Source: Anaerolineae bacterium
Lineage (GTDB): Bacteria > Chloroflexota > Anaerolineae > Epilineales > Epilineaceae
NCBI GenBank assembly: GCA_029262755.1
Contig: JAJCYU010000008.1
Location: 114 to 64,113 of the forward strand
DNA: 64,000 bases
Reading direction: 5' to 3'
Every line of letters starts with the position of its first letter. Positions within the stretch are counted from its first letter, which is position 1. The notes under the pieces are model-generated. The model had not been told where the DNA came from, made no database searches, and saw nothing but the letters and a program-made list of their open reading frames with translations. Of this stretch, positions 2,792 to 31,296 are shown piece by piece. A program made the position numbers and the translations under genes.

Positions 2792-2794
2792 CCA

Positions 2795-4858
2795 ATGCGC
2801 ATCGTGCTCGCCGACACGCTGGCCCAGAGTCTCGAAGCACTCGACAAGTCCGTGCGAGGGCTGGTCAAGCGGAAGGTCTTCGATTTCCAACTCGCGCCGG
2901 CCACATCCGGCAAGAGCTATCACCGCATCGATAAGGCACCGCAGCAAGGCTTCTGGTCCTTCCGCGTCAATCGCGACCTGCGATTGGTCGTCTTTCAGGA
3001 GGGCGACCTACGTGTCCTGTGCCACGTCGCCCACCATGACGACGCCTACGAATGGGCGATGCGTCACCGCTACGAGGAACACCCCAACACGACCGAGATC
3101 CAACTCGTGCGCATCGAGAAATCCGTGCGCGAGGTGATCGAGCGGCGGGTGAAGGTCATCGAAGAGTTGCCCCCCCTCTTCACGAAGCATACCGATGATT
3201 ATCTACTTGCCCTCGGCGTTCCGCCTGTCTGGTTGGACGCCATCAAGCTGGTGACGGAGGACACCCTTCTGGAAGCGCTCGACGAATTGCCCAGCGCCGT
3301 AGCCGAGCGTCTGATGCGGCTTTACGAAGGCAAGCCGGTGCCCCGCCCGGTGATCGCCGCGGGAGCGACGGGCTGGGATCACCCCGACACCGCACGCCAC
3401 TTCCGGGTACTGGGCTCCGAGCGCGAGTTGCAGCAGGCGCTGGAGTTCCCATGGCAGAAGTGGATCGTCTTCCTCCATCCCGAGCAGCGCAAAGTGGCCG
3501 AGCGCACCTTTTCCGGATCGGCTCTGGTGACGGGCGGCGCCGGCACGGGCAAGACGGTGGTCGCGCTGCACCGTGCACAACACCTTGCCGAGGCCAATCC
3601 GAACGCGCGCATCCTGCTGACGACGTTCTCGCGCACGCTGTCTGCAAGCCTCGAGCGCAACGCCCGGGTGCTGATGGGTGAGGACAGCCCGCTGTTGGAC
3701 CGCATTCACGTGGCCAACGTGCATCGCTACGCCGTGGAGGCCTACGAGGAAGCGCACGGCGCAGGACCGCATCTGATCAACGACCAGTCGCTCCAATCGC
3801 GGCTAGCCTCGATCTCGGGCCGGCTTGGATTCGACGAGTTCCCCCTCGACTTCATCGAGGCCGAATGGTGGAACGTCATCGATGCTTGGGGAATCCACGA
3901 TTGGTCGAGCTACCTGACTTTCGCCCGGGTTGGCCGCAAGCAGCGGCTGGGCGCCCGTCAACGGCAGCGGATGTGGCGTGTCTTCGAAGCGATGCTGGGC
4001 GAGTTGCGCGCTGACAACCGACAGACCTACAGTGCGCTTTGCGACACATTGCGCCGTGATGTTGAACATGGCCTAGTGCCCCGCTTCGATCACGTCGTCG
4101 TCGATGAAGCTCAGGACTTTGGACCGGCCGAGCTGCGCCTGCTACGGGCGCTCGTGCTGGAGGGGCCGGACGACCTCTTTCTGAGCGGTGACGCCGGGCA
4201 GCGCATCTTCCAGAGCCGCTTCCCGTGGCTGGCCGCCGATATCGACGTGCGCGGCCGATCGAGCACACTGCGTGTCAACTATCGGACCACCGAGCAAATC
4301 CGTCGCTTCGCAGACCGCATGCGCTTCGTCGTGCACGACGAGGCCGACCCGCTATCGCTTGACGAGGGCGCCGTGTCGCTCCTCGGTGGTCCTGAGCCGA
4401 CACTGATCGGCGCCGACGACAAGGCGGGGGAGATATTGACGCTGTCCACTTGGCTGGAAGAGTTGCTCCAAGACGGCTACCAGCCCGAAGACGTGGCCAT
4501 CTTTGCCCGCACCAAGAAGGTCCGCGACGAGCGGGGGCGCCCGGCCATTGAGCGCTCTGGCGCCCGTGTGCATGAGCTCAACGACGATCGCGAGCCGGAG
4601 GCAGGTTGTGTTTCGCTAGGCACGATGCACCGCGCCAAGGGCCTCGAGTTCAAGGCCGTGGCCGTCGCCGGCTGCGACCGGCGGATGCTGCCGCAGGCGT
4701 GGTTAGCCGAACGCATCGGTGACGCGGCCGAGCGCGAAGCCTTCATCGAGCGCGAACGACACGTCTTCTATGTGGCCTGCACCCGGGCACGCGAGCGGCT
4801 GCTGGTAACGTGGGTCGGGGAGGGGAGCGAGTTTCTGGAGGCAGTAGAACGGGATTGA
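2795..4858 (+). CDS. UvrD/PcrA-like SF1 helicase with an N-terminal RelE/ParE-toxin-like domain (~100 aa)
   Basis: Walker A VTGGAGTGKTVVALHRA, Walker B VVVDEAQDF, NYRTTEQI, GTMHRAKGLEFKAVAV and FYVACTRARERLLVT. The N-terminus VNRDLRLVVFQEGDLRVLCHVAHHDDAYEW follows the RelE/ParE sequence pattern. The ATG lies 4 nt after the upstream stop, with a GGAGG-like site inside the upstream gene's 3' end. Confidence 0.8.
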   Translation: MRIVLADTLAQSLEALDKSVRGLVKRKVFDFQLAPATSGKSYHRIDKAPQQGFWSFRVNRDLRLVVFQEGDLRVLCHVAHHDDAYEWAMRHRYEEHPNTTEIQLVRIEKSVREVIERRVKVIEELPPLFTKHTDDYLLALGVPPVWLDAIKLVTEDTLLEALDELPSAVAERLMRLYEGKPVPRPVIAAGATGWDHPDTARHFRVLGSERELQQALEFPWQKWIVFLHPEQRKVAERTFSGSALVTGGAGTGKTVVALHRAQHLAEANPNARILLTTFSRTLSASLERNARVLMGEDSPLLDRIHVANVHRYAVEAYEEAHGAGPHLINDQSLQSRLASISGRLGFDEFPLDFIEAEWWNVIDAWGIHDWSSYLTFARVGRKQRLGARQRQRMWRVFEAMLGELRADNRQTYSALCDTLRRDVEHGLVPRFDHVVVDEAQDFGPAELRLLRALVLEGPDDLFLSGDAGQRIFQSRFPWLAADIDVRGRSSTLRVNYRTTEQIRRFADRMRFVVHDEADPLSLDEGAVSLLGGPEPTLIGADDKAGEILTLSTWLEELLQDGYQPEDVAIFARTKKVRDERGRPAIERSGARVHELNDDREPEAGCVSLGTMHRAKGLEFKAVAVAGCDRRMLPQAWLAERIGDAAEREAFIERERHVFYVACTRARERLLVTWVGEGSEFLEAVERD

Positions 4859-4906
4859 CGCAGGGCAGAGAACGCTTTGTCGTTTTCGGAGTGGTGTTTG
4901 GACGAA

Positions 4907-6058
4907 CTACGAAGCGACCTGTAGAGCCTCCAACACAATGAAGCCGTCGATGGCAGCGCTCTCCGGAAGGGCACGCACCTGCTCGTCGAGCTCCATGGGT
5001 CGAACGTTGTGTTCGGCCATCAATTCGTACTGAAGTGCATATCCTTCAAGCACGCCGGCGCGCGCAGTTAGTCGGTTCATGAACGGGACGACCACGTCCA
5101 AGTCTCGCTGTCGTTGCTCGGCCGGCGAAGGCGCCGTGAACCGGTCCCGAATGCGTGACGCCGATAGGGCTGCGCGTGCCTTGTGGACATCCTCGAATTG
5201 GGGCTTGCGGATCGTTCGCTCGTCGTAGTAGGGGCCAAGCTCGCGCCGAAGGTCGTCCAACCGATCGCTCGCGTGATCTGAGTCCTCGTTCGCGAAACTG
5301 AGCCAAGCCGACAGGGTTGTTAGAGATACAGAGTCCACAAAATCGGCGTGCAGGAAGCGATGCGGTTCGTCGCCTAGCAGCAGATCGTTCGCAAAGCGCC
5401 TGGTATGGTCGCGCCACACCTCAATTCCGTCGGCGAGCTCGGAGGCCGCAAGGTTCATTGAGCCCATGTCGGCTTGACAACGGGCGAGGCCGAGTAGGGC
5501 GATGCAGAAGATCTGCTCGTTGGCGTCTGCCACGGTGATCTCCTCGGAATGCGCCAGCGCGTTGCGGTATTGGTGCGTCTTCACCGACAGATCGCGATAG
5601 GCATCCACCAAGACCTCTCGCTGGGCATCACCGTCCGCCATCTGAACCACCTTGGCCACTCGCTCCAGCGCGGCGTGCAGCTCCGCTCGCTCGCGGCGTT
5701 CGAGCAATTCGCGGATGGCTCTGACGTCGCGCGCGACAGATTCAAGGCGCTTCTCTAGCCGGTCCAACATCACGAACAGGGTCGAGAACCCTACGGCCGA
5801 GACGGCCAGGTTGAGTGCGGAGAAGGCCATCGTGGCCTGCATGCCTTGGAGGAGGAGAGGGGCGGATGCCGAAAGACGCGCCAACTCAGCTTGTTGTGGA
5901 ATCACCAGGTGGCGCACGATCTGACCGGCTCCCTCCTCTCCGGCCGCTCGGCGAACGACACCGCCGAGTACGGTGCACCGACGTGCATCTACGCAGGGAA
6001 GGACGTCGAGGGGCAGCGAACGCATGACGTTCATGCCGAGGATGCTCGAGTCGATCAT
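4907..6058 (-). CDS. Hypothetical protein with one predicted TM helix (AFSALNLAVSAVGFSTLFVML) followed by a coiled-coil-like region; start may instead be at 5842
   Basis: Long ORF, hydrophobic segment, no recognisable catalytic motifs. Sits on the same strand downstream of the two PD-(D/E)xK genes. Confidence 0.5.
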   Translation of the reverse strand: MIDSSILGMNVMRSLPLDVLPCVDARRCTVLGGVVRRAAGEEGAGQIVRHLVIPQQAELARLSASAPLLLQGMQATMAFSALNLAVSAVGFSTLFVMLDRLEKRLESVARDVRAIRELLERRERAELHAALERVAKVVQMADGDAQREVLVDAYRDLSVKTHQYRNALAHSEEITVADANEQIFCIALLGLARCQADMGSMNLAASELADGIEVWRDHTRRFANDLLLGDEPHRFLHADFVDSVSLTTLSAWLSFANEDSDHASDRLDDLRRELGPYYDERTIRKPQFEDVHKARAALSASRIRDRFTAPSPAEQRQRDLDVVVPFMNRLTARAGVLEGYALQYELMAEHNVRPMELDEQVRALPESAAIDGFIVLEALQVAS

Positions 6059-6227
6059 GGGAAGGCCCTCGATAGGTATGACGTTGAAGAATCGACGCGG
6101 TAGGCCCCACGGTGGGGCAGGGCTTGCAAGCGCTTATCCACGCACGTGAAAAACGTTGAAGTTCAACCACCCTAGCACAGCCCAATTGGCCTGCGCCACC
6201 AGTGTTCTGCTCGCTGATCCATCGGAC

Positions 6228-7067
6228 CTACACAGGGTGCACGTGCTCGATGACATGCACTGCCAGCGTGTTGCGTACCGGAACCAGTTCGTTGGGCAAG
6301 GCTCCTTCGAGCACAAGGGCCGTCTCGACCCCGGTGTCCCTTCCAAGAACCGCGAGCTCTGCCTTCAGCACCGCAGCGTACTTCACACACTGGAACAGTC
6401 CACGTAAGAGGTCAACGGTGGATGCATTGCGTGCCTTGACCTCAACGGCGAGCCAAGTGGCCGGTCCGCGGAAGAGCACGTCAATCTTGTCGGCCGACGG
6501 TAAGCCGTACTCGATCTCGCTGTCGACTCCGTGGGCAAGGCCAACGACCTTCGAGTGCGCCGCCACAAACTTTTTTAGCCGAAGGTGGAGTTCTCCCTCT
6601 CCGCCAGCACGATAGCCGCGTACACGCTCTAGAAGACTGGATGGGACGGCCGGCGGTGCATCCTCAAGATCGAAGTGCGAGAGCACTTGCGGCCAACGAG
6701 AGTAGGCGAAGATCTGGGACCAGAAAGCTAGAGCGAGCTTGCGTTTCGCTCGTAGGGAGCGCGATGCGTAGTCGGGCACGTTTAACGGGTATCCAACGAT
6801 TCCCTCACCTGGCACGCGAGTTTCCTTGCTGACGACAAGGAACTGTATCGGTGGGATCTCCGTTCCCCATCGATCACCTAGCGCGGTGAGATCCCATCCG
6901 ATGGCGCCGAGCACGTAGTTCAGATTGCGTGCGTTTGGCATTCTCAACTCTTCAGCCAAAGCGGAATATGTGATGGGCTGCTCGGCGTGGGCCTGACGCA
7001 CGAGGAGCGGAAGCGCACTACGGGCGCGCCGTTGGTAAAGTTCGTCTCCCTGCATAGTTTGAGCCAT
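6228..7067 (-). CDS. PD-(D/E)xK nuclease-fold protein (restriction-endonuclease-like), otherwise hypothetical
   Basis: C-terminal motif IDVLF...WLAVEVKARN...QCVKY gives D…EVK. Strong RBS GGGAGGAGG before the ATG at 7067 (MAQTMQGDELYQ). The ORF extends to a GTG at 7106. Confidence 0.6.
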   Translation of the reverse strand: MAQTMQGDELYQRRARSALPLLVRQAHAEQPITYSALAEELRMPNARNLNYVLGAIGWDLTALGDRWGTEIPPIQFLVVSKETRVPGEGIVGYPLNVPDYASRSLRAKRKLALAFWSQIFAYSRWPQVLSHFDLEDAPPAVPSSLLERVRGYRAGGEGELHLRLKKFVAAHSKVVGLAHGVDSEIEYGLPSADKIDVLFRGPATWLAVEVKARNASTVDLLRGLFQCVKYAAVLKAELAVLGRDTGVETALVLEGALPNELVPVRNTLAVHVIEHVHPV

Positions 7068-7112
7068 GCGCCTCCTCCCGTGGACATGATGTAGTGAACC
7101 TGGCACGGCAGA

Positions 7113-8555
7113 TCAAACTCCCAGTGGAGCGACTCCCAGCCGCCGATCCCTCGCGTCGCGAATCTCGCACACAGTCTCATGCAGCACGTCGGCCTTCGGC
7201 AGGATCTCGTCGCCGTGCAGCCTCAGCGCCGGTTTCAGCTCATCGACGTACGTGGCGAACACGCGGCAGCCTTCCGGTGCGGCGATGATGAACGAGGCCG
7301 ATCCGACCTGCAAGGCGTAGGAACGGCCTTGCATCGCAGCGTCCTTCCAGTCCTCGCGGCGCACGAGGGAGTGCTTGGCCTCCACGATGGTCAGCAGCCG
7401 GCCTTCGCCGTCGCGAACCAGGTAGTCGATCCGGCCTAGGATGCGCTGCGAGCCGAGTCGGAACTCGCAGGCGTGTTCGCGAATCGAGCGCCCGCCCATT
7501 TTCTTGAGCACGCCTTCGAGGCAGTCCTTGCAGAAGGCGTCCTCGTCCGGATAGTCGCCCGCACGACGAATTCGGTCGAAAGCCGCGGCAGCCACTGAAG
7601 GGGTGGCCGTCTCCGATGGGCTTTCACCTTGCAGCAACTCATGAAGTCGTACGCGCATGCGCGGCGGGATCGACTCCGCTACCAAGCCGTTGAATCGTGA
7701 CTTGACGAGGCCCCATTGCGCGAGCACCTCGTCGGCCATCATCTCCGCGAAGGTCAAGTGACCTGAACTATCGACACGCCGAAGGTCCACGTTGCACGCA
7801 CGCCACCGCGCTAGCGGATCGATGCCGGGCAACCCATCCACCTCAAACACATCGGTGATCGCCCGAGTGTCTGCCATCCGGTACACGTAAACCTTTTCGC
7901 CCGGCGCCATCTCCATTCGCCCAGACCAGGTGACCGTCTCGTTCTCGAGCTCCGCGTAGTCACCCGGCTTGCAGGCAACTAGCCACGCCCGCTCGCCGTC
8001 GCCGCGCCGCACGTGCAGCGGGATCAGGTCGTCGTAGAGGAAGCGCCAGAGGCGAAACTGAAGCTCGAAGCGATCTCGCGGACGCTTGAGAAGAGTGCCG
8101 ACTGAGGTCCGGCGCGGCCACCACTCCTCCGCCAACTCAAAGAGTGCGTCACCGATTTTGCGCCATCGGTCGAGAGCGCGCTGTCCGCTGCCGAAGGCAT
8201 GAAACGAAAACGCGAGACGCGGTTCTGCGGCGCTAAGGAAGGCGAGTCCATCGAAGAGCTCGCGGTCGTAGTACGGCGCGCGCCACAGAAGGAAGTGGTC
8301 TGGATGGGCACGCGCCAACATCGCGGTGGACTCTACGAGCTTGCCGCGAAGTGTCTTGCTGCGGCGCACGCGACCGTAGGCCGTCGCGGGTGTGTCACGG
8401 TCCAGGTTGGCCAGGACGCGTGGCTTCCTCTTGTAGCCATATCGGATCTGGTCGACCAGTGCCCGCGGCTCGATTCGCCGGAAGCGCTCGTACGACGATA
8501 GATCCGCCTCGGCCGCTCGGGCGATGAGGCGTTCGAGCATGACGTTGGCGTTCAT
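7113..8555 (-). CDS. Hypothetical two-domain protein: central possible PUA-like (EVE/ASCH-type) barrel plus C-terminal PD-(D/E)xK nuclease domain
   Basis: GRIDYLVRDGEGRLLTIVEAKHS gives D…EAK. The central segment WLVACKPGDYAELENETVTWSGRMEMAPGEKVYVYR is EVE-like. RBS GGAAGGAG lies 8 nt before the ATG at 8555 (MNANVMLERL). Confidence 0.6.
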   Translation of the reverse strand: MNANVMLERLIARAAEADLSSYERFRRIEPRALVDQIRYGYKRKPRVLANLDRDTPATAYGRVRRSKTLRGKLVESTAMLARAHPDHFLLWRAPYYDRELFDGLAFLSAAEPRLAFSFHAFGSGQRALDRWRKIGDALFELAEEWWPRRTSVGTLLKRPRDRFELQFRLWRFLYDDLIPLHVRRGDGERAWLVACKPGDYAELENETVTWSGRMEMAPGEKVYVYRMADTRAITDVFEVDGLPGIDPLARWRACNVDLRRVDSSGHLTFAEMMADEVLAQWGLVKSRFNGLVAESIPPRMRVRLHELLQGESPSETATPSVAAAAFDRIRRAGDYPDEDAFCKDCLEGVLKKMGGRSIREHACEFRLGSQRILGRIDYLVRDGEGRLLTIVEAKHSLVRREDWKDAAMQGRSYALQVGSASFIIAAPEGCRVFATYVDELKPALRLHGDEILPKADVLHETVCEIRDARDRRLGVAPLGV

Positions 8556-9089
8556 GGTGAGCACTCCTTCCTATCATGCCGAAGTCAGTGCTGAAACGCG
8601 GGACCGTCCGCACGATACAGTGTGCCGTGCCCACCGTCATGTGGGTTCTCCAGCAGCGGATCAGCTGCGCGGTCAGCCGGCCAACTCGGAGCTTGCGTTG
8701 CGCTCAACTGACCGTCGGCCTCGCTCGGTCCAAATCGTCGCCCCAAAACGAAAAATCTTAGGGCCAAGGTGCCACGCCCAAGCGCCTTACGGTCTCGCCC
8801 AACGCCAAGGATTAATGCGGTGCGGGTTTCTTATTGTCGTTTGGCGAAAGCGGGTTGAACGGCGAGTGGAGGCTGTATGGGGGTAAACAATGGTGTTGGA
8901 ACGGACGGGCCGTCGCTTTCGGGGATGAAATCGCCGACTTCATTGATCCCAAGGAGGTGCTCCGTGGTCGGATAGAGGCGGTATGAGACGAGCGCCCTGA
9001 CTCCACAACTGTACGATGGTCCTTCGCTGAGATGCTGACTAGACACAAGCGAGGCTCGGCAACGCGCTCGTACGATCGTCCCCGAATCG

Positions 9090-9953
9090 TCACGGGCCGG
9101 GGAAGGCAATCAGTGCATCTCCGATGGGATAGGCATCGTCCGGACATGAATCGCCGTAGAATAACGGGTCGCCCCACTCGGTATCCGCTGTCCATTGGAA
9201 CGGACCCTTCAGGCGCGCTAGCCGGGAGCGTGGAACCGTGACAGTTAGAGTCTGGCCGTCGACGACGGGCCCTACCAGATCGAATGACTTCGAGGCAACA
9301 AAGTCGAATATGGCCGCGTACCAGTTTGCTCTGATCAACTCGGCGCTGATCGTGTAAAGGGTTCGATCTTCGTAAACAATGCTCGCGCCCCAAAAGTACG
9401 CGTCGAACTCAGACCCTAGCACGCTGGAGTCAGACGGGATTGGGCCTACGGCATCAAAGGCCACCTTGAGGGAGTTTCCGTCGGCTTCGAGGCGTACGGC
9501 TTGCAAATCGAGCCCAGGAATGGGGTCGGGCGGAGCGGTGCCATCCCCATCGCCCGTGTCGCCCACGCTGTCCGAGCAGACGGCTGAACCCTTGAACGTG
9601 AACTCTTGCGCCGGAGTGCGTTGCCTCTGCGTTGTGGAAGTTGGTGTTCGAGGTGTCTTTGTGGGCGCATCGGATTCCGCGTCCGAATTGCTCGAAGCCT
9701 CGGCGGCCGATTCGGATGGGGTAGCGGTGTGGGTGACCGACGCCCCCGATCCTTCGCTAGCCGCCTGCGGAGTTGACGTTGCTGCGCGGTCACCGTCGTT
9801 GTCCGAGGGAAGCGACTGCACTTCACCGCACGCTCCACAGACTGCGAAGGGAGCCAGGCCCGCCAGAACCAGCACCTTCCGCCAGCCGCGTCCGCGACTA
9901 CAGGCTGGAATGCCATTCTTGGGTGCCAAAGTGTCGCCCGTGCCACTTCTCAT
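9090..9953 (-). CDS. Secreted or lipoprotein-like hypothetical protein with a Ser/Thr/Pro/Asp-rich linker and a C-terminal globular domain
   Basis: Signal-peptide-like VLVLAGLAPFAVCGAC followed by a low-complexity ST-rich region. The start codon is uncertain. Confidence 0.5.
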   Translation of the reverse strand: MRSGTGDTLAPKNGIPACSRGRGWRKVLVLAGLAPFAVCGACGEVQSLPSDNDGDRAATSTPQAASEGSGASVTHTATPSESAAEASSNSDAESDAPTKTPRTPTSTTQRQRTPAQEFTFKGSAVCSDSVGDTGDGDGTAPPDPIPGLDLQAVRLEADGNSLKVAFDAVGPIPSDSSVLGSEFDAYFWGASIVYEDRTLYTISAELIRANWYAAIFDFVASKSFDLVGPVVDGQTLTVTVPRSRLARLKGPFQWTADTEWGDPLFYGDSCPDDAYPIGDALIAFPGP

Positions 9954-10159
9954 AAAGCCTTCTCCCCATAGCCTCTCGGTTGCCGCGATGAGTAATGATC
10001 CCCTCAATCGCAGCCCGCGCAAGGCTGTCGTAGAATCGGCGGTAGGGTCGGTAAGTGCACACCACCCTCCTGACCGAGCCGCATCTCGCTCGGTGTAGGA
10101 GCAGAGGCGAGATGCGACCGTCTAGAACGAATCCAGCCCGGCCCAGATAATGGAACAAG

Positions 10160-10785
10160 GTGTCCACTCGGCTGTACCACCTCACCCATGGCAGCAACCT
10201 GGCGGCGATCATCGCGCAGGGTGGATTGCGCTGCAAGCGGCAATTGCGGGAGGCCAACGTCGACCATCGAGACGTCGCGCGGCGCCCCCTGCAGGAGAGG
10301 AGATCCACCAGGCAGGTTCGTAAAGGGCCTGGCGGCACACTCCACGATTTCGTGCCTCTCTACTTCGCGCCGCGACCGCCCATGCTTTACGCGCTACTCG
10401 ATCCGAAGAGGCCAGATGGTCCTGTCGACGAACGCGCGATGAACTATCTGGTCACCGACACAGACATGGTCGAGCGTCACGAGCGACCCTTCGTCTTCAC
10501 CGATGGCCACGCGGTGATGGGGTTCACGCAGTTCCACAACAGTCTTGATGAACTGCCTCTGCTGGACTGGGAGGTCATTGAAAGCAGAGACTGGGCGGAC
10601 ACTAACGACGATCCGGACCGAAAGCGACGCAAGCAAGCCGAATTCCTCATTGCCGAGGAGGTTCCCTGGGCGATGATTCAGGAGATGGAGTCTTCGATGA
10701 GGTTGTCGAAGCCCGCGTTCGCGAGATCGTGCGCCAGGCCGGATCGGATCACGAGCCGACGGTACGCGTGCAACCCGGCTGGTAA
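10160..10785 (+). CDS. darT: DarT (DUF4433) ssDNA thymidine ADP-ribosyltransferase toxin with an apparent 1-nt frameshift near 10679–10689 (pseudogene or sequencing error)
   Basis: N-terminus VSTRLYHLTHGSNLAAIIAQGGL is the DUF4433 signature. Frame A runs through EFLIAEEVPWAMIQ. A second frame then reads GVFDEVVEARVREIVRQAGSDHEPTVRVQPGW*, which matches a DarT C-terminus. The span is 626 nt, one short of 3n. GTG start. Confidence 0.75.
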
Positions 10786-10808
10786 TATCATGTTGGAGGG
10801 AGGTCCCG

Positions 10809-11870
10809 ATGATCGAGCTTGGACGTGGCAACATTCTAGAGGTCGAAGCCGAGGCGCTCGTGAACACCGTCAACTGCGTCGGTGTTATGGGCAAGGGCAT
10901 CGCTCTGCAGTTCAAGCGGGCCTTTCCGCACAATTACGCTGCCTACCGGAAAGCGTGCGACGCAGGCGACGTCGCCCCTGGACGAATGCACGTCCATGCG
11001 ACGTCATCCTTGGTCGGGCCTCGGATCATCATCAACTTCCCGACGAAGCGCCACTGGCGCAATCCTTCTCAACTGGACGACGTCACGGAAGGGCTACGCG
11101 ACCTCGTCTGGATCGTGCGGGAGCACGGGATTCAGTCGATTGCGGTACCTCCGCTCGGATGCGGCAATGGCGGCCTTGATTGGGCGCAGGTGGAACCGCT
11201 CATCCGGAAGGCGTTCGAGCCGCTCGAAACAGTGCGCGTCATTCTCTATACGCCTGGTTACGCGCCCAGCGCGCGCGAGCGCCGACCGGCGCCCGGAGCG
11301 TGGAAGTGGACACCTGCCCGATCGCTGATGGTGCAGCTGATGGATGCTTACCGTCAGGGCGAGTACCGACTAAGCCTGCTTGAGATACAGAAACTCGCCT
11401 ACTTCATGCAGGAGGCGGGCGAGCCGATGAAGTTGAACTTCGTCAAGGCCGTGTACGGGCCGTACGCGGACAACGTGAGCCACCTGCTCCAGTCGATGGA
11501 AGGCCACGCGATCGATGGGGCAACAGACGAGCGGTCACCCGAAACGGAGATCGGGCTGCTCGAAGGCGCGGCCGAAGAGGCCCGCGACTATGCGATCGAT
11601 TCGTCTACGGTGGGCAGGCTCACTAGGGTGCTCAGCCTTATCGAAGGCTTCGAGACGCCGTATGGGATGGAGCTGCTCGCTTCGGTGCATTGGGTAGCGC
11701 GCGAGAGCGTGACCCACGAGAGGCCGTTGAATGACGATGCGCTTGTTCAGGCTATTCACGCCTGGAACGAGCGGAAGCGTCGATTGCTCAAGCCGGAGCA
11801 CATTCGCGTTGCGGCGAAGCATCTGCGCGCTCATGGTTGGATGGGCCAGTCATTGGCCGTGCCGGCCTAG
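10809..11870 (+). CDS. darG: DarG antitoxin (N-terminal macrodomain, ADP-ribosyl-DNA glycohydrolase)
   Basis: ILEVEAEALVNTVNCVGVMGKGIALQFKRAFP is a macrodomain signature. GGAGG RBS. Position is immediately after darT. Confidence 0.85.
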   Translation: MIELGRGNILEVEAEALVNTVNCVGVMGKGIALQFKRAFPHNYAAYRKACDAGDVAPGRMHVHATSSLVGPRIIINFPTKRHWRNPSQLDDVTEGLRDLVWIVREHGIQSIAVPPLGCGNGGLDWAQVEPLIRKAFEPLETVRVILYTPGYAPSARERRPAPGAWKWTPARSLMVQLMDAYRQGEYRLSLLEIQKLAYFMQEAGEPMKLNFVKAVYGPYADNVSHLLQSMEGHAIDGATDERSPETEIGLLEGAAEEARDYAIDSSTVGRLTRVLSLIEGFETPYGMELLASVHWVARESVTHERPLNDDALVQAIHAWNERKRRLLKPEHIRVAAKHLRAHGWMGQSLAVPA

Positions 11871-12054
11871 GAGTGGTCATCGGCCCTGCGCGCCCCCGCC
11901 GACAGATCAATCCGACACGCCTCCAGAACCTCCGCCAAGAACGACTCTTCCAATCCCACGGTTCTCGTCTAGAAGTCCATGAGCTCCTTCAGCGGGGTTG
12001 CCCGAAGACCAGCCGGTAGGCGACCAGGCTTTGATTGAGCCGCACGATAAAAAT

Positions 12055-12219
12055 CCCGTGCGTATACCGACGAAAGCGGGCACCTGTCAGCGAAAGACCC
12101 GTTCACCCATGTCCAATCCGGGCACTTTTAGCACCCTGTCAGGACCCAGCGTCGCTTCGCTCCGACAGCTGCCCGGTTTCCTCGGAATGGGTGCCCGCTT
12201 TCGTCGGAATGAGCACGGG
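12055..12219. mobile_element. 165-bp element bounded by 30-bp imperfect terminal inverted repeats (24/30 identical) with internal sub-repeats; MITE-like or structured RNA
   Basis: Left arm cccgtgcgtataccgacgaaagcgggcacc (12055–12084). Reverse complement of the right arm 12190–12219 is cccgtgctcattccgacgaaagcgggcacc. Internal repeats ctgtcag/ccgacag and tcggaatg. Confidence 0.5.
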
Positions 12220-12890
12220 TGCGCGATTGCCAGCTCCCCGGAGCCACCACCCCATGACCATCTACGACCGCATCGGCCACCACTACGCCACGCGCCGCCG
12301 CCAAGACCCCCTTCGTCGAAGGCGAAGCCGTACTCGCCGCGGAGGCCGTTGAGGATGGCGTTGCTGCCGGCCTCGCCGACGTGGTAGTGGTAACCGGGCA
12401 CAGCGTCGGAGTGGCCGCCGTTCGCGTCGAGGTCCGTCGGCGCTTGGCCGGCCTCGTCGTGGCTGGCGCAGAGGCCGTAGCCGTCGACGGCGTAGCCGAT
12501 GAGCGGTGCGTGATCTTCCTCGGTCGCCACCTCAACCGTGCAGCCGGTGTGGGCGCGGTAGTGGTAGCCGGCCACGGGGTTGACGTGACCGCCGCAGTCG
12601 TCGAAGGGTGCCAGGGTGTAGGCGCCGAGGATGGCGTCGACGGGGGCGGCCAGGTCCTGCGCGGCCTCTTGCGCTCCCGTTTGCTGCGCTCCGGCCTGTT
12701 ACACGCCGGTCTCTGGCGCGTCGGAATCCGGCGCCTCGCGGTCTTCTGGGGCCTGCTCGACGGCCTCCGGCGCGGCCATTCGCGCGGTCGGGGGAGGGTC
12801 GACCGGCCGGGCGCAACCGGCGAGCGGCACGAGCGCTGCGAGGACGTCCGCGGCCAAGGAGGCCGGGAGAGATGCGCGGGACGGGTGCAT
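12087..12890 (-). pseudogene. YHYH-family lipoprotein gene interrupted by an in-frame TAA (12699–12701); its 3' end runs into the inverted-repeat element
   Basis: Lipoprotein signal MHPSRASLPASLAADVLAALVPLAGC, then ...PETGV*QAGAQQ... in the same frame, then GYHYRAHTGC and GYHYHVGEAG (YHYH motifs). Confidence 0.55.
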
Positions 12891-13036
12891 GGGACGACTC
12901 TGAAGGGCGAAGCGACGCGCCCGGGTTGCACAACGGGGTGGAGGATACGGGTCGTCTGTTAGGCGGCGGCAAGGGGCGGCGCAAGGAGAAGGTTGGTTGA
13001 CTGCGATGGCGAGCGGTGGGGTCGCCAATCTCACGG

Positions 13037-15868
13037 TCAGGAGGTCTCGTCGCTCCCTCCGCCGCCGTCCCCGCCGCCCGTACCACCGCCCTCCTGCGCC
13101 ACCCGCCGCATGATGCGCCGTGCCACGCGCTCGATCCCGAGCGCAGCGCCCTCCGCGCGCGCCGCCGCGTGCGCCTGCGTGCGCAGCGGCTCGAGGACCC
13201 GGTCGTAGTCCTCCACGGCGAGGTCGAGGTGACCTTCGGCGGCACCGACGATCCACGCCGCCTCCTCGCCGCGGTCGAGGTCCAGGCACGTTATGGCGAG
13301 AGCGGCCAAGGCGAGGCAGATGTAATTCTCCGTCCCGAGGTTCTGTTCCGAGCGTAGCAGGTAGTCCAGGCTATTGAGGAGGATGGGCATGGCGTCTCGC
13401 GTTCGTCCGTCCAGGGCCAGGGAGGCGGCCCACTCGGTCTTCGACTTGGCGACCATGTCGCGGTTGCCCAACGCGGCGTAGCCTTCGATTGCGCTGCATG
13501 CATGCTCCGCGGCGGCGCCGGGTTCGCCGAGCCGGCGATAGCAGATGGCGACCATGCTGTGGGCGCCCGCCTCGTACTGCTGGTAGCGGATGCCGCGGAA
13601 GACGTCCAGCGCCTCCTGGAAGCCGGCGAGCGATTCCTCGAGCCGCCCTTGTTGCATGCGCAGATTGGCCAAGGTGGCTAGTGAGGTGCCGAGCGTCACC
13701 GAGTTGATGTCGCTGCGGTCTAGGCCGAGGACCTCCTCCAGCAGTTGCTCCGCCCTCGACGCAAGGCCGATGTTGGATGCCGTAAGGGCCGCTGTCTGCA
13801 GCGCCTGACCAAGGCCACGTGAGGTGCCTTCCTCGCGTACGAGAGCCAATCTGCGCAGGGCCGCCTCGTAGGCTGCTTCCCGCTTGTTTTGAAATTTCAG
13901 GAGCGAATGCTCGATATACGCCGCAAGCCGCCGTTCCTCGGGGCCGTCGGCACCGTGGGCCAGAACGTGCGCTTCTTCCAACAACGTCATCGCGGCCTGC
14001 GACTCACCACGGACATAGAGCTGGCGTCCCAGGGAACAAAGTGCCCGCGCTCGAAGAAGGCTCTGCTCGGCAGGCGTATCCCGTTCCAAGAGCACGTGCG
14101 CGAGCGCGAGCAGATCGGGCATCGCATAGCGCACCGTCCAGTAGGCGATGACGTTCGCGAAGACCTTCATGCCCGCGGTCACGTCGCCCTCGGTGCTTGC
14201 CCAGCGCAGCGCGGCGAGGAGGTTGTCGCGATCGCGATCGAGCCGATCCAGCGTATCCGACATCGCCTCTCCCCTCAGGCCGTCTCTCGCTGAATCGCAC
14301 AGCGCCGCGGCCCACGCGAGATGCCGCTCGCGCAGCCGGACCTCGGCGCCCGCTTCGGCCAGGCGCTGCGCGGCGAACGCGCGCACCGACTCCAGCAGGT
14401 CGTAGCGCGGGGGGGTGTCGTCGGTGTCCACAGTCACCAGCGATTTCTCGACGAGCTCGCTGAGCAGGTCCAGCACCGCCCAATCCTCGACCGCCTCGCC
14501 GGCGCAGACGGCCTCCGCCGCCTCCAGGTCGAAGCCGCCGGCGAAGACGCACAGTCGTTGCAGCAGCGCCTGCTCGGGCTCGTCGAGCAGGCGGTAGCTC
14601 CAGTCCAGCGTCTCGTGCAGGGCCTGGTGGCGGGGCAGTGCCGTGCGCCGGCCGGCGGTGAGCAGGCGGAAGCGCTGGTCGAGGCGGTCGAGGATCTGCC
14701 GGGGCGACATCGCCTTTACCCGCGCCGCCGCCAACTCGATGGCCAGCGGCAGACCGTCCAGGCGCCGGCAGAGCTCCACCACGTCGGCCGTGTTGCCGGC
14801 GTCGAGCGCGAAGTCGCGCCGAACAGCCTTCGCGCGGTCGAGAAAGAGTCGTACCGCGGCGTAGTCCGCGGCCGTTTCGGGTGTCGGGGGCGCTTCGTTC
14901 TCGGGCGGCGCGCTGAGGGCCGGCACGGCGTAGACGTGCTCGCCGTCAACGCGCAAGGCCTCGCGGCTGGTGGCCAGGACGCTCAGGCCGGGATGGGCCA
15001 TGGCGAGCGATTCGACGAGCGTCGCGCAGGAATCGATGACATGTTCGCAGTTGTCGAGCAGCAGCAGGAGCCGGCGCTCCTGCAGGAAGTCGTGCAGGGT
15101 GGCCTCCAGCGGCCGTCCCGGCTGCTCGCGCAGGCCGAGGCCCGCGGCCACCGATTCGACCACGCCCGCGCCGGGCTGGAGGGACGCAAGGTCAACCAGC
15201 CACGCGCCCTGCGGGAAGCTGCGCAAGGCCTGGAGCGCGGCGTGCAGCGCCAGCCGCGTCTTGCCCGTGCCGCCGGGGCCGGTGAGGGTGACGATGCCGT
15301 GGCGCCCGATGGCCTCCGTGACATGGGCCAACGAGCGCTGGCGCCCCACGAAGCTGCTGCGCCCGCGCGGAAGATTGTGCGGCGGGTCGGCGGAGCCGGC
15401 GGCGACGGGCGCGCCGGCCGGGGGCCCGGCGAGGTCGGCGTCGGAGCCGAACCCAGAGCGGGCGCGTTGGGCGGCGGCCTCGTCGCCCAGCGCGCGGTGC
15501 ACGCTCTCGGCCAGGCGGGGCAGGGCGGCGTCGAAGCCGAGGGCATGAGCGTCCACGTACTGGATGCGCCCGAGCTGGAAGTGCAGCTCGGTGGGCTGGA
15601 GCAGCACGGGCAGCACCGGCGTGCCGCGATCCAGGGCGTGCTGCCACTCGTCCTCGACGTTGGAGGAGGCCATGGCCGCCGGCGTCACGACGAGGATGAG
15701 GACGTCCGCCGAACGTAGCGCCTCTTGGATGGCCGTGCTCCAGCGCGCGCCGCCGTGGATGCCCTCACGGTCGATCCACGGCTCGATGCCGTGCGCGGGC
15801 AGGGCGGCGGCCAGGCGACGCGTAAACGGCTCGTCGCAGCGAGCGTAGCTGAGGAAGGCGCGGATCAT
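13037..15868 (-). CDS. TIR–NB-ARC–TPR STAND NTPase (bacterial TIR-domain STAND; candidate antiviral sensor with NADase effector)
   Basis: TIR domain FLSYARCDEP...WIDREGIHGGARW...ADVLILVVTPAAMASSNVEDEW contains the catalytic-Glu motif. P-loop GPGGTGKTRLAL, Walker B LLLLLDNCEH, LATSRE, then multiple TPR-like repeats. The ATG shares an ATGA overlap with the upstream ATPase stop. Confidence 0.85.
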   Translation of the reverse strand: MIRAFLSYARCDEPFTRRLAAALPAHGIEPWIDREGIHGGARWSTAIQEALRSADVLILVVTPAAMASSNVEDEWQHALDRGTPVLPVLLQPTELHFQLGRIQYVDAHALGFDAALPRLAESVHRALGDEAAAQRARSGFGSDADLAGPPAGAPVAAGSADPPHNLPRGRSSFVGRQRSLAHVTEAIGRHGIVTLTGPGGTGKTRLALHAALQALRSFPQGAWLVDLASLQPGAGVVESVAAGLGLREQPGRPLEATLHDFLQERRLLLLLDNCEHVIDSCATLVESLAMAHPGLSVLATSREALRVDGEHVYAVPALSAPPENEAPPTPETAADYAAVRLFLDRAKAVRRDFALDAGNTADVVELCRRLDGLPLAIELAAARVKAMSPRQILDRLDQRFRLLTAGRRTALPRHQALHETLDWSYRLLDEPEQALLQRLCVFAGGFDLEAAEAVCAGEAVEDWAVLDLLSELVEKSLVTVDTDDTPPRYDLLESVRAFAAQRLAEAGAEVRLRERHLAWAAALCDSARDGLRGEAMSDTLDRLDRDRDNLLAALRWASTEGDVTAGMKVFANVIAYWTVRYAMPDLLALAHVLLERDTPAEQSLLRARALCSLGRQLYVRGESQAAMTLLEEAHVLAHGADGPEERRLAAYIEHSLLKFQNKREAAYEAALRRLALVREEGTSRGLGQALQTAALTASNIGLASRAEQLLEEVLGLDRSDINSVTLGTSLATLANLRMQQGRLEESLAGFQEALDVFRGIRYQQYEAGAHSMVAICYRRLGEPGAAAEHACSAIEGYAALGNRDMVAKSKTEWAASLALDGRTRDAMPILLNSLDYLLRSEQNLGTENYICLALAALAITCLDLDRGEEAAWIVGAAEGHLDLAVEDYDRVLEPLRTQAHAAARAEGAALGIERVARRIMRRVAQEGGGTGGGDGGGGSDETS

Positions 15869-16431
15869 GGACGCCACCCCCACAACGCCCCCACGGGCAC
15901 GGCATGGATGTTCGCCGCGAAGGGCACGACCTCGCTGCCGCCGTAGATCACCAAGCCGCGGTGGAAGCGCTCGCCGGCCAGTTCGGCGAAGGCGCGGATG
16001 CCGCGCAGGTGACGATCGGAGAGGGAGGTGGAGGCCTTCACCTCGATGGCCACGCAGCGGCCCTGAGCGTCTTCCAGGATGAGGTCAACTTCCCGTCCTC
16101 GATGCGTGCGCAGGTGGTGGAGGTGGGCGCGCGTCGTCGACCAACCCAGCTGCTTGGCGATCTCCGTCGACACGAAGGTCTCGAGCAACGGGCCGATGGG
16201 CGTGGGCTCGGTGCGCAGACGCTCCGGGCTCAAGCCCAGGAGGTGGGCCGCAAGGCCGGAGTCGCTGATCACGGTCGCGTCGTCCAACGGGAGATAGCGT
16301 GCGGGGAGGGCCTCTTCCGCAAGGGCGCGGACGAGCGTGCTCTTGCCGACCTGCCGCGCGCCCGACAGGAAGACGACGGGCGTATCGGCAAGTGCGGCCA
16401 GCAAAGGTGGTGTTAGGGCGCGGGGCTTCAT
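15865..16431 (-). CDS. Short DUF4143-family ATP-binding protein: Walker A followed directly by the DUF4143/PD-(D/E)xK module, with the central AAA region missing
   Basis: FLSGARQVGKSTLVRAL, and VDLILEDAQGRCVAIEVKAS gives D…EVK. Only 188 aa, versus ~400 aa for typical COG1373 members. Confidence 0.7.
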   Translation of the reverse strand: MKPRALTPPLLAALADTPVVFLSGARQVGKSTLVRALAEEALPARYLPLDDATVISDSGLAAHLLGLSPERLRTEPTPIGPLLETFVSTEIAKQLGWSTTRAHLHHLRTHRGREVDLILEDAQGRCVAIEVKASTSLSDRHLRGIRAFAELAGERFHRGLVIYGGSEVVPFAANIHAVPVGALWGWRP

Positions 16432-16454
16432 GGGCGAGAGCGTAGTACGTGTGT

Positions 16455-16493
16455 GGTGGAATATCCACCACGCTATGGCGGATATTCCACCGT
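16455..16493. promoter_or_regulatory. Inverted pair of GGTGGAATATCC(A/G)CC motifs 25–60 bp upstream of the ATPase/TIR operon start; candidate operator
   Basis: gtggtggaatatccaccac ... atggcggatattccaccgtg; the second copy is the reverse complement of the first. Confidence 0.4.
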
Positions 16494-16525
16494 GTACGAA
16501 CGGGCGTGGCCATCCGGTCGCACAC

Positions 16526-16692
16526 CTAGTAGTCCAACCAGCCTGAATCTACGGGTTCGGGAGCCACTGCATCCACGCCAGCGGCCCGCCGCTCGTCGGC
16601 AATAGCGATGCTATTCAGTCCTCTCTGCGAACCACCGGCGCGGCGCATTGGCTCCCTCACTACCCGCATCTCCAAGCTGGTTGGACTACTAG
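16526..16692. repeat. Perfect 17-bp inverted repeat pair (CTAGTAGTCCAACCAGC / GCTGGTTGGACTACTAG) flanking 133 bp; MITE-like element or long RNA stem
   Basis: Exact reverse-complement match at 16526–16542 and 16676–16692. Confidence 0.5.
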
Positions 16693-16850
16693 CCGGTTAC
16701 GCCGGCCTCGGCCAGCCGGGCGCGCGCGTACTGGCGCACGGTCTCCAGCAGCCGTTGGTGCGTCGCCTCGCCCATGGCCTCTTTCTACGACGGCGGCCCA
16801 GGGCGCGACCTGAGCCGCGTCCCAGCGGGCGGCGCCCGGCCGGCAGGCCC

Positions 16851-26205: not shown

Positions 26206-26515
26206 GCGGCGCAGGCACGCGCATGAAACGCGTGAACGATGCGGAGCAATGGATGGAGGGCCGCCCAGCCGGCAGTCGGACGGCCCTTCGTGCCGATCGC
26301 ACCGCAGGGTTGTGACATCCGACACAGCTCGTGTGACGCCGTCCGGGTAGGCTAGGACTGGGCGAACTCGGGGACGGGAAGGGCCGTCGGGCTGCGATCC
26401 TGCAGCGACCGCGCTTCGCTTTGAACACCCGATGCTACCGGCCTCGCGTCGGCGGCTACCGGCGCCGGAGCGGCCATGTTGCCGTCCGTGCCCTGCCGGG
26501 AGGAGCGTGCGCACC

Positions 26516-27526
26516 ATGCCGAGATCGTCGACTCGATGCGACATCCAATACCTTGCCGCACAATCCGCCCTGGATGCACAGGTGGCCTACTGCCTGCCCC
26601 TGCATGTCGAAGTGCCCGCGGCCGCGCGGGCCTGGCTGCGATTCCAATTGGGCGGGAAGCGGGTGACGCCCGTTGCCGACCGCTCCTCCCGCAAGGGCGC
26701 GACCCGCGAGGCCGGGCCCGTCGGGCACAACATCGCGTTCACGCGCGAGGGCCTCGTGCGCTTCGGTCTCGCTGCCGACGGCCTAGGTGACGCCGAGTCT
26801 GCGTGGGGCGGCGCGCAACAACGGGTACGCTTCGGCGGGTCTGGTGCCGTCCAGGGTGCAGAGCCCGGCATGGGATCCGTACAGCTCGATCCGCTTGCCG
26901 TCCATCCCGATACCATCGTCCACGTTCTCTGGCTGCTCTGGGGTCGCGACCCCGAGCGCGTCGAACGCGATCTCGCGCGGCAGATGCGTCGTGCGGAGCG
27001 CGGTGGCATGCGGATGATCGAGAGGCCGGTTGCGCTTTCACCGGATGGCGATAGTCCGAGCGCGCGTACGCGGCGCATGAACGGGATCCTGGCGCCACGC
27101 GTGCGCCGCCGCGTGCCGATCACGGTGCCCGCTGCCCATGATCCGGACCATATCTTGCCGGCCGCACGACGGCGGAGGCGGTTGCTCGCCCGGCGGGACG
27201 AGAGCCGAAGGGATGTGGGCGCCAACGGGACGATGTGGCGCGCGCCGCAGGGCGTACTGGGCGACGAGGAGCGTGTTTTCCTGCCCGGATTGACAGCCCT
27301 GGCCTACCTGGCTGCGGAAACACCGGGGGTCCCGGACACACGCGTGAGCGGTCCGGCCCATCCCTCGACATCGACGTCCGCCGCGCCCACTACGTCTGCG
27401 ACGACCACCGTGCACCGCGGATCCTCGCGATCCACGACAGCGAGCCGGACTCGGCGCCCATCCGATCACCGGGCGCCCGAACCGGTCGCGGCCGGACGCG
27501 GCTCGGCGGCCGACCCGGGGGCCTGA
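26516..27526 (+). CDS. Hypothetical protein (low confidence; C-terminal third is low-complexity and may result from a frameshift)
   Basis: GGGAGGAG RBS 10 nt before the ATG at 26516. High GC3 across 26640–27060. Confidence 0.3.
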   Translation: MPRSSTRCDIQYLAAQSALDAQVAYCLPLHVEVPAAARAWLRFQLGGKRVTPVADRSSRKGATREAGPVGHNIAFTREGLVRFGLAADGLGDAESAWGGAQQRVRFGGSGAVQGAEPGMGSVQLDPLAVHPDTIVHVLWLLWGRDPERVERDLARQMRRAERGGMRMIERPVALSPDGDSPSARTRRMNGILAPRVRRRVPITVPAAHDPDHILPAARRRRRLLARRDESRRDVGANGTMWRAPQGVLGDEERVFLPGLTALAYLAAETPGVPDTRVSGPAHPSTSTSAAPTTSATTTVHRGSSRSTTASRTRRPSDHRAPEPVAAGRGSAADPGA

Positions 27527-27593
27527 TCGCGGTCGCCGGTCGGCCATCGTCTCTTTGGACCCAAGCGCAGAACGGGACTAGATTCAACGACTT

Positions 27594-28703: not shown

Positions 28704-28811
28704 CGGAGCGCGGGTCGCGAAGTCCGTGGCGTTGTATTGCCCGGCCGACCGATCCGGCGATCGGTGGGGGCCCATCTCCCGGATCCCGATCACCCATCCA
28801 GCGCAGCGCGC

Positions 28812-30368: not shown

Positions 30369-30590
30369 CTCGAGCCGCTCTGGGTCATGCGCGAGGGCGC
30401 GAATCGTCTCGCTAAGGGATACGGGTGGGCTCCCGGGGTGTGCGTGCAGGGCACGTGCGATGCGTCGCCGTGTTCGGGTCGGCGTCGGCGGAACATCGAC
30501 TGTATCTGGATGGTACGACGGGCGCCGCTCGTTGGTCGAGCGCTCACCTGACGGTTGCGTGCCGGAGGGGCGCTGAACGTGCGTCGCGCT

Positions 30591-30632
30591 GTACGGATCG
30601 TATGACGAGCGGTACGGATCGTACGACGAGCG
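30591..30632. repeat. 21-bp tandem duplication (gtacggatcgta[t/c]gacgagcg ×2), intergenic
   Basis: Direct reading of the sequence. Confidence 0.6.
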
Positions 30633-30744
30633 GTGCTTGCGGGTCTCCGGTCGGTGGTGGAACCATGGAGGTTGAGGCGACCCCCTTGTCGGCCTGATGC
30701 GTACCCAGTTCTAGGCGATGCGCGCGAAGGAGGGCAGCAACGAA

Positions 30745-31296
30745 ATGGCGAGCCGATACAATTTCGAGGCATACGATCCGGCATGGCCGGCGGCCTTCGA
30801 GCGCGAGGCGGAGCGGTTGCGCGCGCTTCTCGGCGACGCGCTGGTCGCGATTCATCACGTGGGCAGCACATCGGTGCCCGGATTGGCGGCCAAACCGATC
30901 ATCGACCTGCTGCCGTTGGCGAGCACGATCGAGCACATCGACCGGGCATCGCCGGTCATGGTGGACGCAGGCTACCGGGCCTGGGGTGAGTACCACCTGC
31001 CTGGGCGGCGCTATTTTACACGCGACCGGGACGGGTGGCGCACACACAACGTGCATATCTACGCCGTGGACAATCCCGACGTCCCGCGCCACATCGCGCT
31101 GCCCGCCTACTTGCGGGCGCACGACGACAAGGCTGCGGAGTACGCGACCCTCAAGCGCGAGGCCTACCGGCTGCACCCGGCCGACATCGACGCATACAAC
31201 GATGCGAAGGACGCGTGGATCAAGGCGCTGGAGCCCGTAGCGCTCGCGTGGTGGCGGTCCGCGGGCGGGGATGTGGGCGCCGATCCGGTGTCATGA
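30745..31296 (+). CDS. grpB: GrpB-family (UPF0157) nucleotidyltransferase-fold protein
   Basis: AAGGAGG RBS. YDPAWPAAFEREAERLRALLGDALVAIHHVGSTSVPGLAAKPIIDLL. Confidence 0.7.
   Translation: MASRYNFEAYDPAWPAAFEREAERLRALLGDALVAIHHVGSTSVPGLAAKPIIDLLPLASTIEHIDRASPVMVDAGYRAWGEYHLPGRRYFTRDRDGWRTHNVHIYAVDNPDVPRHIALPAYLRAHDDKAAEYATLKREAYRLHPADIDAYNDAKDAWIKALEPVALAWWRSAGGDVGADPVS

Follow-up and report, generated by a model that had tools for sequence, protein, structure and literature searches.

A divergent TIR-NB-ARC-TPR protein of an Anaerolineae bacterium, probably a single-gene NLR-like sensor, and the DUF4143 ATPase remnant that precedes it

In a 64,000-nucleotide stretch of DNA from an Anaerolineae bacterium (contig JAJCYU010000008.1, positions 114 to 64,113; hereafter the window), the minus strand carries at positions 13037-15868 a gene for a 943-residue protein that joins a TIR domain, an NB-ARC domain and tetratricopeptide repeats (TPR), the layout of a signal transduction ATPase with numerous domains (STAND). 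The underlying open reading frame (ORF) spans 13037-15883, and the ATG at 15868, which yields 943 residues plus the stop codon, is backed by relatives that open with M-x-x-x-F-[IL]-S-Y at the same point. Directly upstream, at 15865-16431 of the same strand, lies a 188-residue ORF of the DUF4143 (PDC-S01) ATPase type. Its stop codon TGA and the ATG at the start of the TIR gene overlap in the four bases ATGA at 15865-15868, as a preliminary description of this DNA had stated. The GC content at third codon positions (GC3) is 0.87 in the TIR gene and 0.85 in the upstream ORF, which is in frame and coding-like.

The TIR-NB-ARC-TPR architecture set out in the preliminary description was confirmed by Pfam (TIR_2, NB-ARC and TPR_12) and by a full-length AlphaFold2 model, which was built on 52 homologues and is confident throughout (mean predicted local distance difference test score, pLDDT, 88.1). 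In the model, the TIR domain (residues 1-126) is followed by a disordered linker (residues 141-159) and by a P-loop nucleotide-binding domain, a helical domain and a winged helix extending to residue ~505. About 20 paired helices then cover residues 509-930, some 420 residues in all. By the secondary structure of the model and the TPR_12 match, this region (residues ~509-930; 13079-14344, minus strand) is a TPR-like helical repeat sensor, which ends in a Gly-rich tail, and TPR proteins predominate among the matches of the family profile to the PDB.

The central nucleotide-binding oligomerization domain (NOD), of the NB-ARC type, comprises residues ~171-505 (14354-15358, minus strand) and is recognized by Pfam NB-ARC (28.0 bits, against a gathering score of 23.5), AAA_22 and nSTAND1, as well as by its structural neighbours. 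The three NB-ARC motifs named in the preliminary description are all present, with GPGGTGKTRL at residues 197-206, LLLLDNCEH at 268-276 and LATSRE at 298-303, and the nucleotide-binding motifs Walker A, Walker B and sensor-I are intact. In the Walker A motif proper (GPGGTGKT, residues 197-204; 15257-15280, minus strand), G197, G199, G200 and K203 are invariant in the 52 homologues. The NOD also contains the GxP motif (GLPLAI) and the sensor-I arginine (TSRE). The histidine of the MHD motif is replaced by leucine: 'RYDLLESVRAFA' aligns with 'RYRFHDLVRLYA' of AfsR (LLE versus FHD), and the family consensus is RYRLLET. The MHD-type histidine, a mark of the eukaryotic NB-ARC members, is thus lacking family-wide.

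A Foldseek search with the full-length model ranked PH0952 of Pyrococcus horikoshii (6MFV, E=9e-13) first, followed by RPP1, Apaf-1, the NRC helper nucleotide-binding leucine-rich repeat receptors (NLRs) and CED-4; no Avs structure was found among the top 50 structural neighbours. PH0952 is likewise a STAND protein with a TPR sensor and gave the best full-length structural match (template modelling score, TM, 0.43/0.59), but it has no TIR effector and shares only 16% sequence identity. With a profile of the TIR-bearing members, the plant TIR-NLR Roq1 is collinear over the TIR domain and the P-loop (query residues 3-226 versus chain residues 12-249, 1e-9). The resemblance to plant TIR-NLRs (Roq1, RPP1) and to Apaf-1/CED-4 therefore comprises the collinear TIR and NB-ARC domains of Roq1, the structural matches, GLPLAI and the sensor-I arginine, whereas the sensor here is made of TPRs and theirs of leucine-rich repeats or WD40 repeats, and the MHD histidine is replaced here. 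By sequence, AfsR was the only solved STAND protein found (1e-8 with the single sequence, 3.6e-29 with the family profile), and it is also the best full-length NCBIfam match, far below the cut-off of that family. Judged from the model, the NOD is a member of the AP-ATPase/NB-ARC clade.

The TIR domain (residues 1-126; 15491-15868, minus strand) is matched by TIR_2 at E=2e-25, and a model of this domain alone reached a pLDDT of 89.4. Its structural neighbours include the SPARTA TIR-APAZ protein, Hydra TRR-2, MAL, SARM1 and AbTir (Foldseek; TM normalized to the query at most 0.77), and a profile of 12 family TIR domains matched the CRISPR-associated TIR protein Cat1 (2.3e-14), PdTIR (9e-11) and AbTir (1.9e-10). 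The motif SSNVEDEW, in which the preliminary description had placed the catalytic glutamate, occupies residues 68-75. Glu74 (codon 15647-15649, minus strand), the putative catalytic residue, in the alpha-C region, is invariant in alignments A2, A3 and A6, is retained in every TIR member of the family, and aligns in the profile alignment with the glutamate of AbTir 'tnyEld' (E208) and with those of Cat1 and PdTIR. Gly40, in the BB-loop, aligns with G174 of AbTir, in 'kvGdslr'. In AbTir, the E208A mutant is dead and G174A has little or no activity (Manik et al.).

The tryptophan of the WxxxE motif of enzymatic TIR domains is missing. AbTir, PdTIR and Cat1 have a tryptophan four residues before the glutamate, and the 943-residue protein has Asn70 at this position (codon 15659-15661, minus strand; AbTir Trp204 in the profile alignment). 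In nearly all of the relatives in A6 the position is N, Q, H or D, and hence non-aromatic. The TIR domain accordingly shares the fold, the catalytic glutamate and the BB-loop glycine with the NADase TIRs AbTir, Cat1, SPARTA TIR-APAZ and SARM1, and differs from them in carrying an asparagine for the conserved tryptophan, which plant TIRs need. An aromatic residue at the W204 position is conserved in all of the TIRs that make cyclic ADP-ribose (ADPR) products, and W204A cuts cyclization and lowers activity, while L6 and ROQ1 lose activity when mutated at the equivalent residue (Manik et al.). Since Asn70 replaces the W204 equivalent and the position is non-aromatic in nearly all relatives, we predict that the TIR domain, if active, simply hydrolyses NAD+ to ADPR and nicotinamide and does not make a cyclic ADPR-type signal. 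This prediction fits the absence of a signal-receiving effector gene nearby, and plain hydrolysis would in turn suit a self-contained depletion effector. The same substitution leaves real doubt as to whether the domain is active at all.

A Thoeris-like signalling TIR was considered and rejected, as ThcB4 scored 37.5 bits against a cut-off of 220, ThsB scored 16-17 bits, and the cyclization position is non-aromatic. Near the TIR gene there is no Thoeris partner of the SLOG, Macro or SIR2 type; the macrodomain protein encoded close by is DarG.

The closest relatives of the TIR domain are 48-69% identical to it and include TIR-cyclase proteins (loci L088 and L089); further TIR-cyclase forms are P0151 and P0042. 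Among ten scanned TIR relatives without an NTPase domain (loci L096-L131, 48-56% identity), five are TIR-WD40 proteins, four are TIR-FGE-sulfatase proteins and one is a TIR-PD40 protein. WD40 propellers and FGE-sulfatase domains have been highlighted as sensor types of defence STANDs (Lee et al. 2026, Nature; PMC13581612). The TIR subfamily thus appears to be a portable effector placed on ligand-binding sensors, and this speaks for a role in immunity or conflict. An 824-residue 'tetratricopeptide repeat protein' in the PDB (9M0N/9UMD) also has an N-terminal TIR domain that matches the family TIR profile (1e-4) and may be a TIR-TPR relative of solved structure; with the profile of TIR-bearing members, no match beyond the TIR was found in 9M0N at E<=1e-6.

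The preliminary description took the upstream gene for an intact AAA/DUF4143 ATPase. The alignments show otherwise: the ORF has only 188 residues and lacks about 225 central ones, Walker B among them. In Pfam, residues 17-54 correspond to positions 2-42 of the 129 of AAA_14, and residues 54-134 to positions 81-160 of the 160 of DUF4143. Among the PADLOC models, PDC-S01 fits best; it stands for a single-gene candidate defence system, and of the 422 positions of its profile only 288-419 are matched (7e-62). A HMMER search of 1.84 billion representatives returned 5078 matches, in which the typical relative has 400-420 residues and aligns in two stretches; residues ~53-185 of the ORF correspond to positions ~278-410 of the intact relatives of ~410 residues. 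In a word-indexed search, the matches fell into two groups, one confined to the first 30% of the query and the other to its last 70%. When plasmids were searched by tblastn, the match began at query residue 56 or 57 in 187 of the 187 matched records, and in the intact homologue on pTT27 of Thermus thermophilus (381 residues) residues 251-379 correspond to residues 56-184 of the ORF.

These tblastn starts and alignments A1 and A7 place the deletion junction approximately at residues 55-57, within DDATV/ISDSGL (16261-16269, minus strand). The missing block runs from '...LDDATV' to '...SDSGLAAHLLG', profile positions ~55-287 (A1, A7), and held Walker B (DEVQ), the PGRFLLTGS segment, the region of the sensor and the arginine finger, and the N-terminal half of DUF4143. 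Because Walker B is gone, the product cannot be a working AAA ATPase. The ORF shares with PDC-S01 and other AAA_14-DUF4143 proteins its C-terminal 130 residues and the N-terminal Walker A segment, and differs from them in its length (188 versus ~410 residues) and in its incomplete AAA core and DUF4143 domain. On these alignments, it is the relic of a neighbouring single-gene DUF4143 ATPase that suffered an in-frame deletion of ~225 central residues. The tight ATGA overlap suggests that transcription and translation reach the TIR gene by way of this remnant, whose remaining role is most likely passive, namely to carry the promoter-proximal region and the stop/start overlap for the TIR gene.

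The preliminary description had further proposed that the pair might be a distinct two-gene variant. In such a system, the 188-residue product, a P-loop stub joined to the retained C-terminal EVDLILE...IEVKAS segment, which we take to be PD-(D/E)xK-like, would act as a coupled regulator or a second effector. The 4-bp overlap, the intact in-frame ORF with its GC3 of 0.85 and the preserved EVDLILE...IEVKAS motif are consistent with this idea, as is the existence of other DUF4143 mini-forms (P0258, P0196 and P0255) that are without the same central block. Those proteins have ~180-200 residues and join a Walker A stub to the C-terminal third, with differing junctions. Repeated in-frame loss of the central ~225 residues could in principle have produced a functional mini-protein that was captured as a TIR-STAND accessory, an undescribed two-component variant, an outcome that we regard as very unlikely. 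The mini-forms are 39-48% identical to the remnant, and intact proteins, at 46-52%, are at least as close to it; since the junctions are also not the same, the mini-forms are probably products of recurrent, independent decay, made visible by a bias in gene calling. The only other copy of the exact 188-residue form lies on a 2.1-kb Logan contig (L001) with 99.95% nucleotide identity; at this identity it represents essentially the same strain and may derive from the same reads, so that it is not independent evidence.

The pairing is also absent from related loci. Two TIR-STAND relatives on long contigs (L002 and L003) have no DUF4143 neighbour, and tblastn found no adjacent DUF4143 gene at 80 listed genome loci with the same NOD family, except for one weak match (L009; 54 residues, E=8e-4) beside a STAND whose query match excludes the TIR. 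At 80 metagenome loci with the closest TIR relatives, there were no DUF4143 matches at E<=1e-4. Conversely, the contexts in which the nearest DUF4143 relatives occur are unrelated, and many of these genes are themselves degraded: in L085 the gene is split into AAA_14 and DUF4143 fragments, and in L087 there are stops upstream and the gene downstream is not a TIR gene. With DUF4143 missing beside 82 related STAND loci and 80 TIR-relative loci, and with Walker B, the sensor, the arginine finger and the N-terminal DUF4143 half lost from the remnant, the two-gene variant finds no support, and we consider a functional two-gene system highly improbable. The simplest reading is that two defence-type genes were neighbours and one has decayed.

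The local context is a defence island. The window begins within the C-terminal part of a Druantia DruE gene (35-2791, plus strand; PADLOC 2.5e-57), followed by a NERD/UvrD, GajB-like helicase gene (2795-4858, plus strand; PADLOC and Pfam), a JukB-like gene (4907-6058, minus strand; PADLOC 2.5e-16), and the genes for DarT (10160-~10800, plus strand; PADLOC 1.4e-52) and DarG (10809-11870, plus strand; PADLOC 1.8e-126). All of these defence genes lie within 1.2-13 kb of the TIR gene, the 3' end of which is 1.2 kb from the end of DarG, and the PDC-S01 relic adjoins its other side. The probability that a random non-defence gene has a defence system within 5 kb has been put at 0.0153 (Lee et al. 2026, PMC13581612). 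Positions 1-12000 have a GC content of 62%, compared with ~68-74% over 12000-64000, and this left block resembles a horizontally acquired defence island.

Because of its domain architecture, intact P-loop, conserved glutamate and defence-island setting, the 943-residue protein is best read as an Avs-like NADase sensor, and we consider it probable that the protein on its own serves as an NLR-like (STAND) sensor in immunity or conflict and depletes NAD+. That it acts as a single gene is likewise probable, since the supposed ATPase partner is an internally deleted leftover. Like the Avs/AVAST proteins with TIR effectors, it combines an N-terminal effector with a STAND NTPase in the centre and, at the C-terminus, a TPR-like sensor of at least 400 residues, all encoded by one gene, which in the window has defence genes as neighbours; it differs from them in matching no PADLOC Avs model and in its NOD, which is of the AP-ATPase/NB-ARC type and closest to AfsR. 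Avs proteins were described by Gao et al. 2022, Lee et al. 2026 (PMC13581612) enlarged the group to ~90 families, and current surveys regard their TIR domains as effectors that deplete NAD+.

If the protein works as Avs proteins, plant TIR-NLRs and Apaf-1 do, the TPR solenoid would bind a trigger, most likely a phage protein. Binding would lift autoinhibition, whereupon the NOD would exchange or bind nucleotide and oligomerize. The clustered TIR domains could then form composite active sites and hydrolyse NAD+, as in the AbTir and SARM1 assemblies. The infected cell would stop growing or die, and NAD+ depletion would amount to abortive infection.

Apart from its own entry, the whole protein has no relative above ~43% identity. 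The top 120 homologues share a NOD-HTH_77-TPR chassis with varied outputs, by far the commonest of which is a class III adenylate cyclase (PF00211); the others are LuxR/GerE, SARP/BTAD, XRE, CHAT and TIR_2, with TIR in ~9 of the 120. In a neighbour-joining tree of the NOD region, which is rough and star-like and has no support values, TIR-bearing proteins occur in at least four places among the cyclase, LuxR, SARP and XRE forms, and the window protein pairs with P0004, its closest full-length relative. The chassis is that of AfsR (SARP-NB-ARC-TPR; PDB 8K60/8JKE) and of the cyclase-, LuxR- and XRE-STAND-TPR proteins from Actinomycetota, Chloroflexota and Armatimonadota, with 35-44% identity over 60-80%, although the output here is a TIR domain and theirs is DNA-binding or a cyclase, and the context here is one of defence genes. 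Two relatives carry two TIR-NB-ARC-HTH_77-TPR paralogues side by side, in tandem in L002 (3229-8778) and divergently in L003 (3084-8796). Such neighbouring paralogues recall the paired NLRs of plants; in the window there is just one copy.

PADLOC-DB v2 includes models for AVAST I-V. The PADLOC matches of the 943-residue protein are at the level of the TIR domain and of the P-loop only, and by these models the protein falls outside every described Avs/AVAST, TIR-NLR or bNACHT family. The Avs-like sensor of the preliminary description is supported in part, by architecture, P-loop, glutamate and defence setting, and not by any Avs, AVAST or NLR model.

Several findings weigh against an immune, NAD+-depleting sensor. 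The NOD-TPR chassis is common mainly to cyclase, LuxR, SARP and XRE signalling proteins, and AfsR is its best sequence match. No Avs, AVAST, TIR-NLR or NACHT model of PADLOC was matched by the whole protein at E<=0.01 or by residues 160-943 at E<=10. The TIR gene has a GC content of ~72%, like the rest of the contig, whereas the DruE-DarTG block has 62%; given this native composition, the gene may merely border the acquired island. The loci of three relatives (L002, L003 and L005) hold efflux, methyltransferase and dehydrogenase genes and no obvious defence genes, so that the defence association seen in the window is not evident there. Finally, NADase activity is not assured, as the WxxxE tryptophan is missing and its change to alanine kills activity in some TIRs.

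These points would suit a STAND protein of non-immune signalling, whose trigger would be a metabolite or protein of the cell itself, as for AfsR, MalT and the cyclase-STANDs, a reading that we hold to be unlikely and yet the most serious rival. Its output would be a TIR domain that modulates NAD+/ADPR or serves as a scaffold in regulation, stress response or developmental cell death. The nearest full-length relatives, mostly cyclase-, LuxR-, SARP- and XRE-STAND-TPR proteins, the top rank of AfsR for the NOD-TPR part in both NCBIfam and the PDB sequence search, the scattering of TIR forms among signalling forms, the native GC, and the neighbourhoods of relatives, which are not defence islands, all speak for it. 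The preliminary description had itself named clustering with AfsR-like regulator STANDs as a result that would speak against defence, and the chassis does cluster with them, which is one half of what it had named. On the other side stand the retention of the catalytic glutamate in every TIR member, the use of this TIR subfamily otherwise on WD40 and FGE-sulfatase domains typical of conflict systems, and the presence of DarTG 1.2 kb away and of the PDC-S01 relic next door. Moreover, defence and non-defence STAND clades are interspersed and functional switches are frequent (Lee et al. 2026, PMC13581612), and for this reason kinship of the chassis does not decide function. We hold an immune or conflict sensor to be the more probable reading.

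Several neighbours show signs of decay. The DarT ORF (10160-11179, plus strand) runs 370 nt into darG, which begins at 10809, and the PADLOC DarT profile is matched only up to position 166 of 196; the 3' end of DarT looks frameshifted or stop-less, and DarG looks intact. Between DarG and the TIR-STAND gene, two overlapping minus-strand ORFs in different frames (12087-12575 and 12128-12931), with a sub-threshold YHYH match, may represent a frameshifted gene at 12087-12931. This region also holds a 51-nt direct repeat (12380-12430 and 12554-12604). Together with the DUF4143 deletion, the DarT end and the possible frameshift at 12087-12931 raise the question of whether the TIR-STAND gene is itself inactive or in decay, a relic within an island that is breaking down, and the missing WxxxE tryptophan could be taken in the same sense. 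The gene is, however, a full-length ORF (943 residues, compared with 889-1020 in relatives) with a GC3 of 0.87, all of the invariant residues of the family are present, the model is confident throughout, and the loss of the tryptophan is family-wide rather than a private lesion. We therefore regard inactivity through decay as improbable.

The intergenic region before the remnant contains two further features. A palindrome of the form GGTGGAATATCC(A/G)CC occurs twice at 16455-16491 (16/17 bp), 24-60 nt before the remnant ATG, where 0.13 matches would be expected for the two observed; it may be an operator or form a hairpin where the promoter of the two-gene transcript is likely to lie. Farther out, at 16526-16692, lies a long, near-perfect hairpin or inverted repeat of 167 bp with exact 17-nt termini (CTAGTAGTCCAACCAGC). 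The 269-nt region 16432-16700 has a minimum free energy of -166 kcal/mol, compared with -104 +/- 5 kcal/mol for shuffled sequences (z = -11.7). The region has no Rfam match, and searches of the window, of plasmids and of metagenome contigs gave no further copy of the hairpin. The region may serve as an operator or as the terminator for the gene upstream, or it may be left over from a mobile element. A second inverted repeat, at 12055-12219 on the other side of the TIR-STAND gene, has 30-nt arms that are 90% complementary, a 105-nt spacer and a fold z of -4.1. That the two are copies of one mobile element was considered, as the arm spacing is the same, and rejected, as their sequences are unrelated. 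A consensus scan showed no notable promoter or terminator, as expected for a high-GC organism.

Upstream of the remnant, the same strand carries a DUF429 gene, a MazG-like gene and one that weakly resembles VWA, and PADLOC matched none of the three. A housekeeping urocanase gene further along the window indicates that the contig is probably chromosomal. The 64-kb window contains no tRNAs and no Rfam families. Several very large ORFs (364-1412 residues) with coding-like GC3 lie at 26432-36116, 41673-45035 and 49022-57467; a Pfam scan, which covered these ORFs apart from the one at 53229-57467, gave no match at E<=1e-5. A strong positive GC skew extends from ~28 kb onward.

Bacterial TIR-NB-ARC-TPR architectures have reportedly been noted for two decades in comparative genomics, by Koonin and Aravind among others. 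STAND proteins have since been classified into 589 clades (Lee et al. 2026, PMC13581612). If the 943-residue protein is indeed an immune sensor, it would add one divergent, TIR-effector NLR-like member to a large and well-charted class. The prediction that its TIR domain does not cyclize, made from the asparagine at the position of the WxxxE tryptophan, is directly testable. For annotation, the locus warns against inferring a two-gene system from a tight ATGA overlap with an ORF that bears domains, the partner here being a deletion relic. For the family, an immune-type TIR output would sit on a NOD-TPR chassis that is mostly used for cyclase and transcription-factor signalling, which matches the published switching between defence and non-defence functions.

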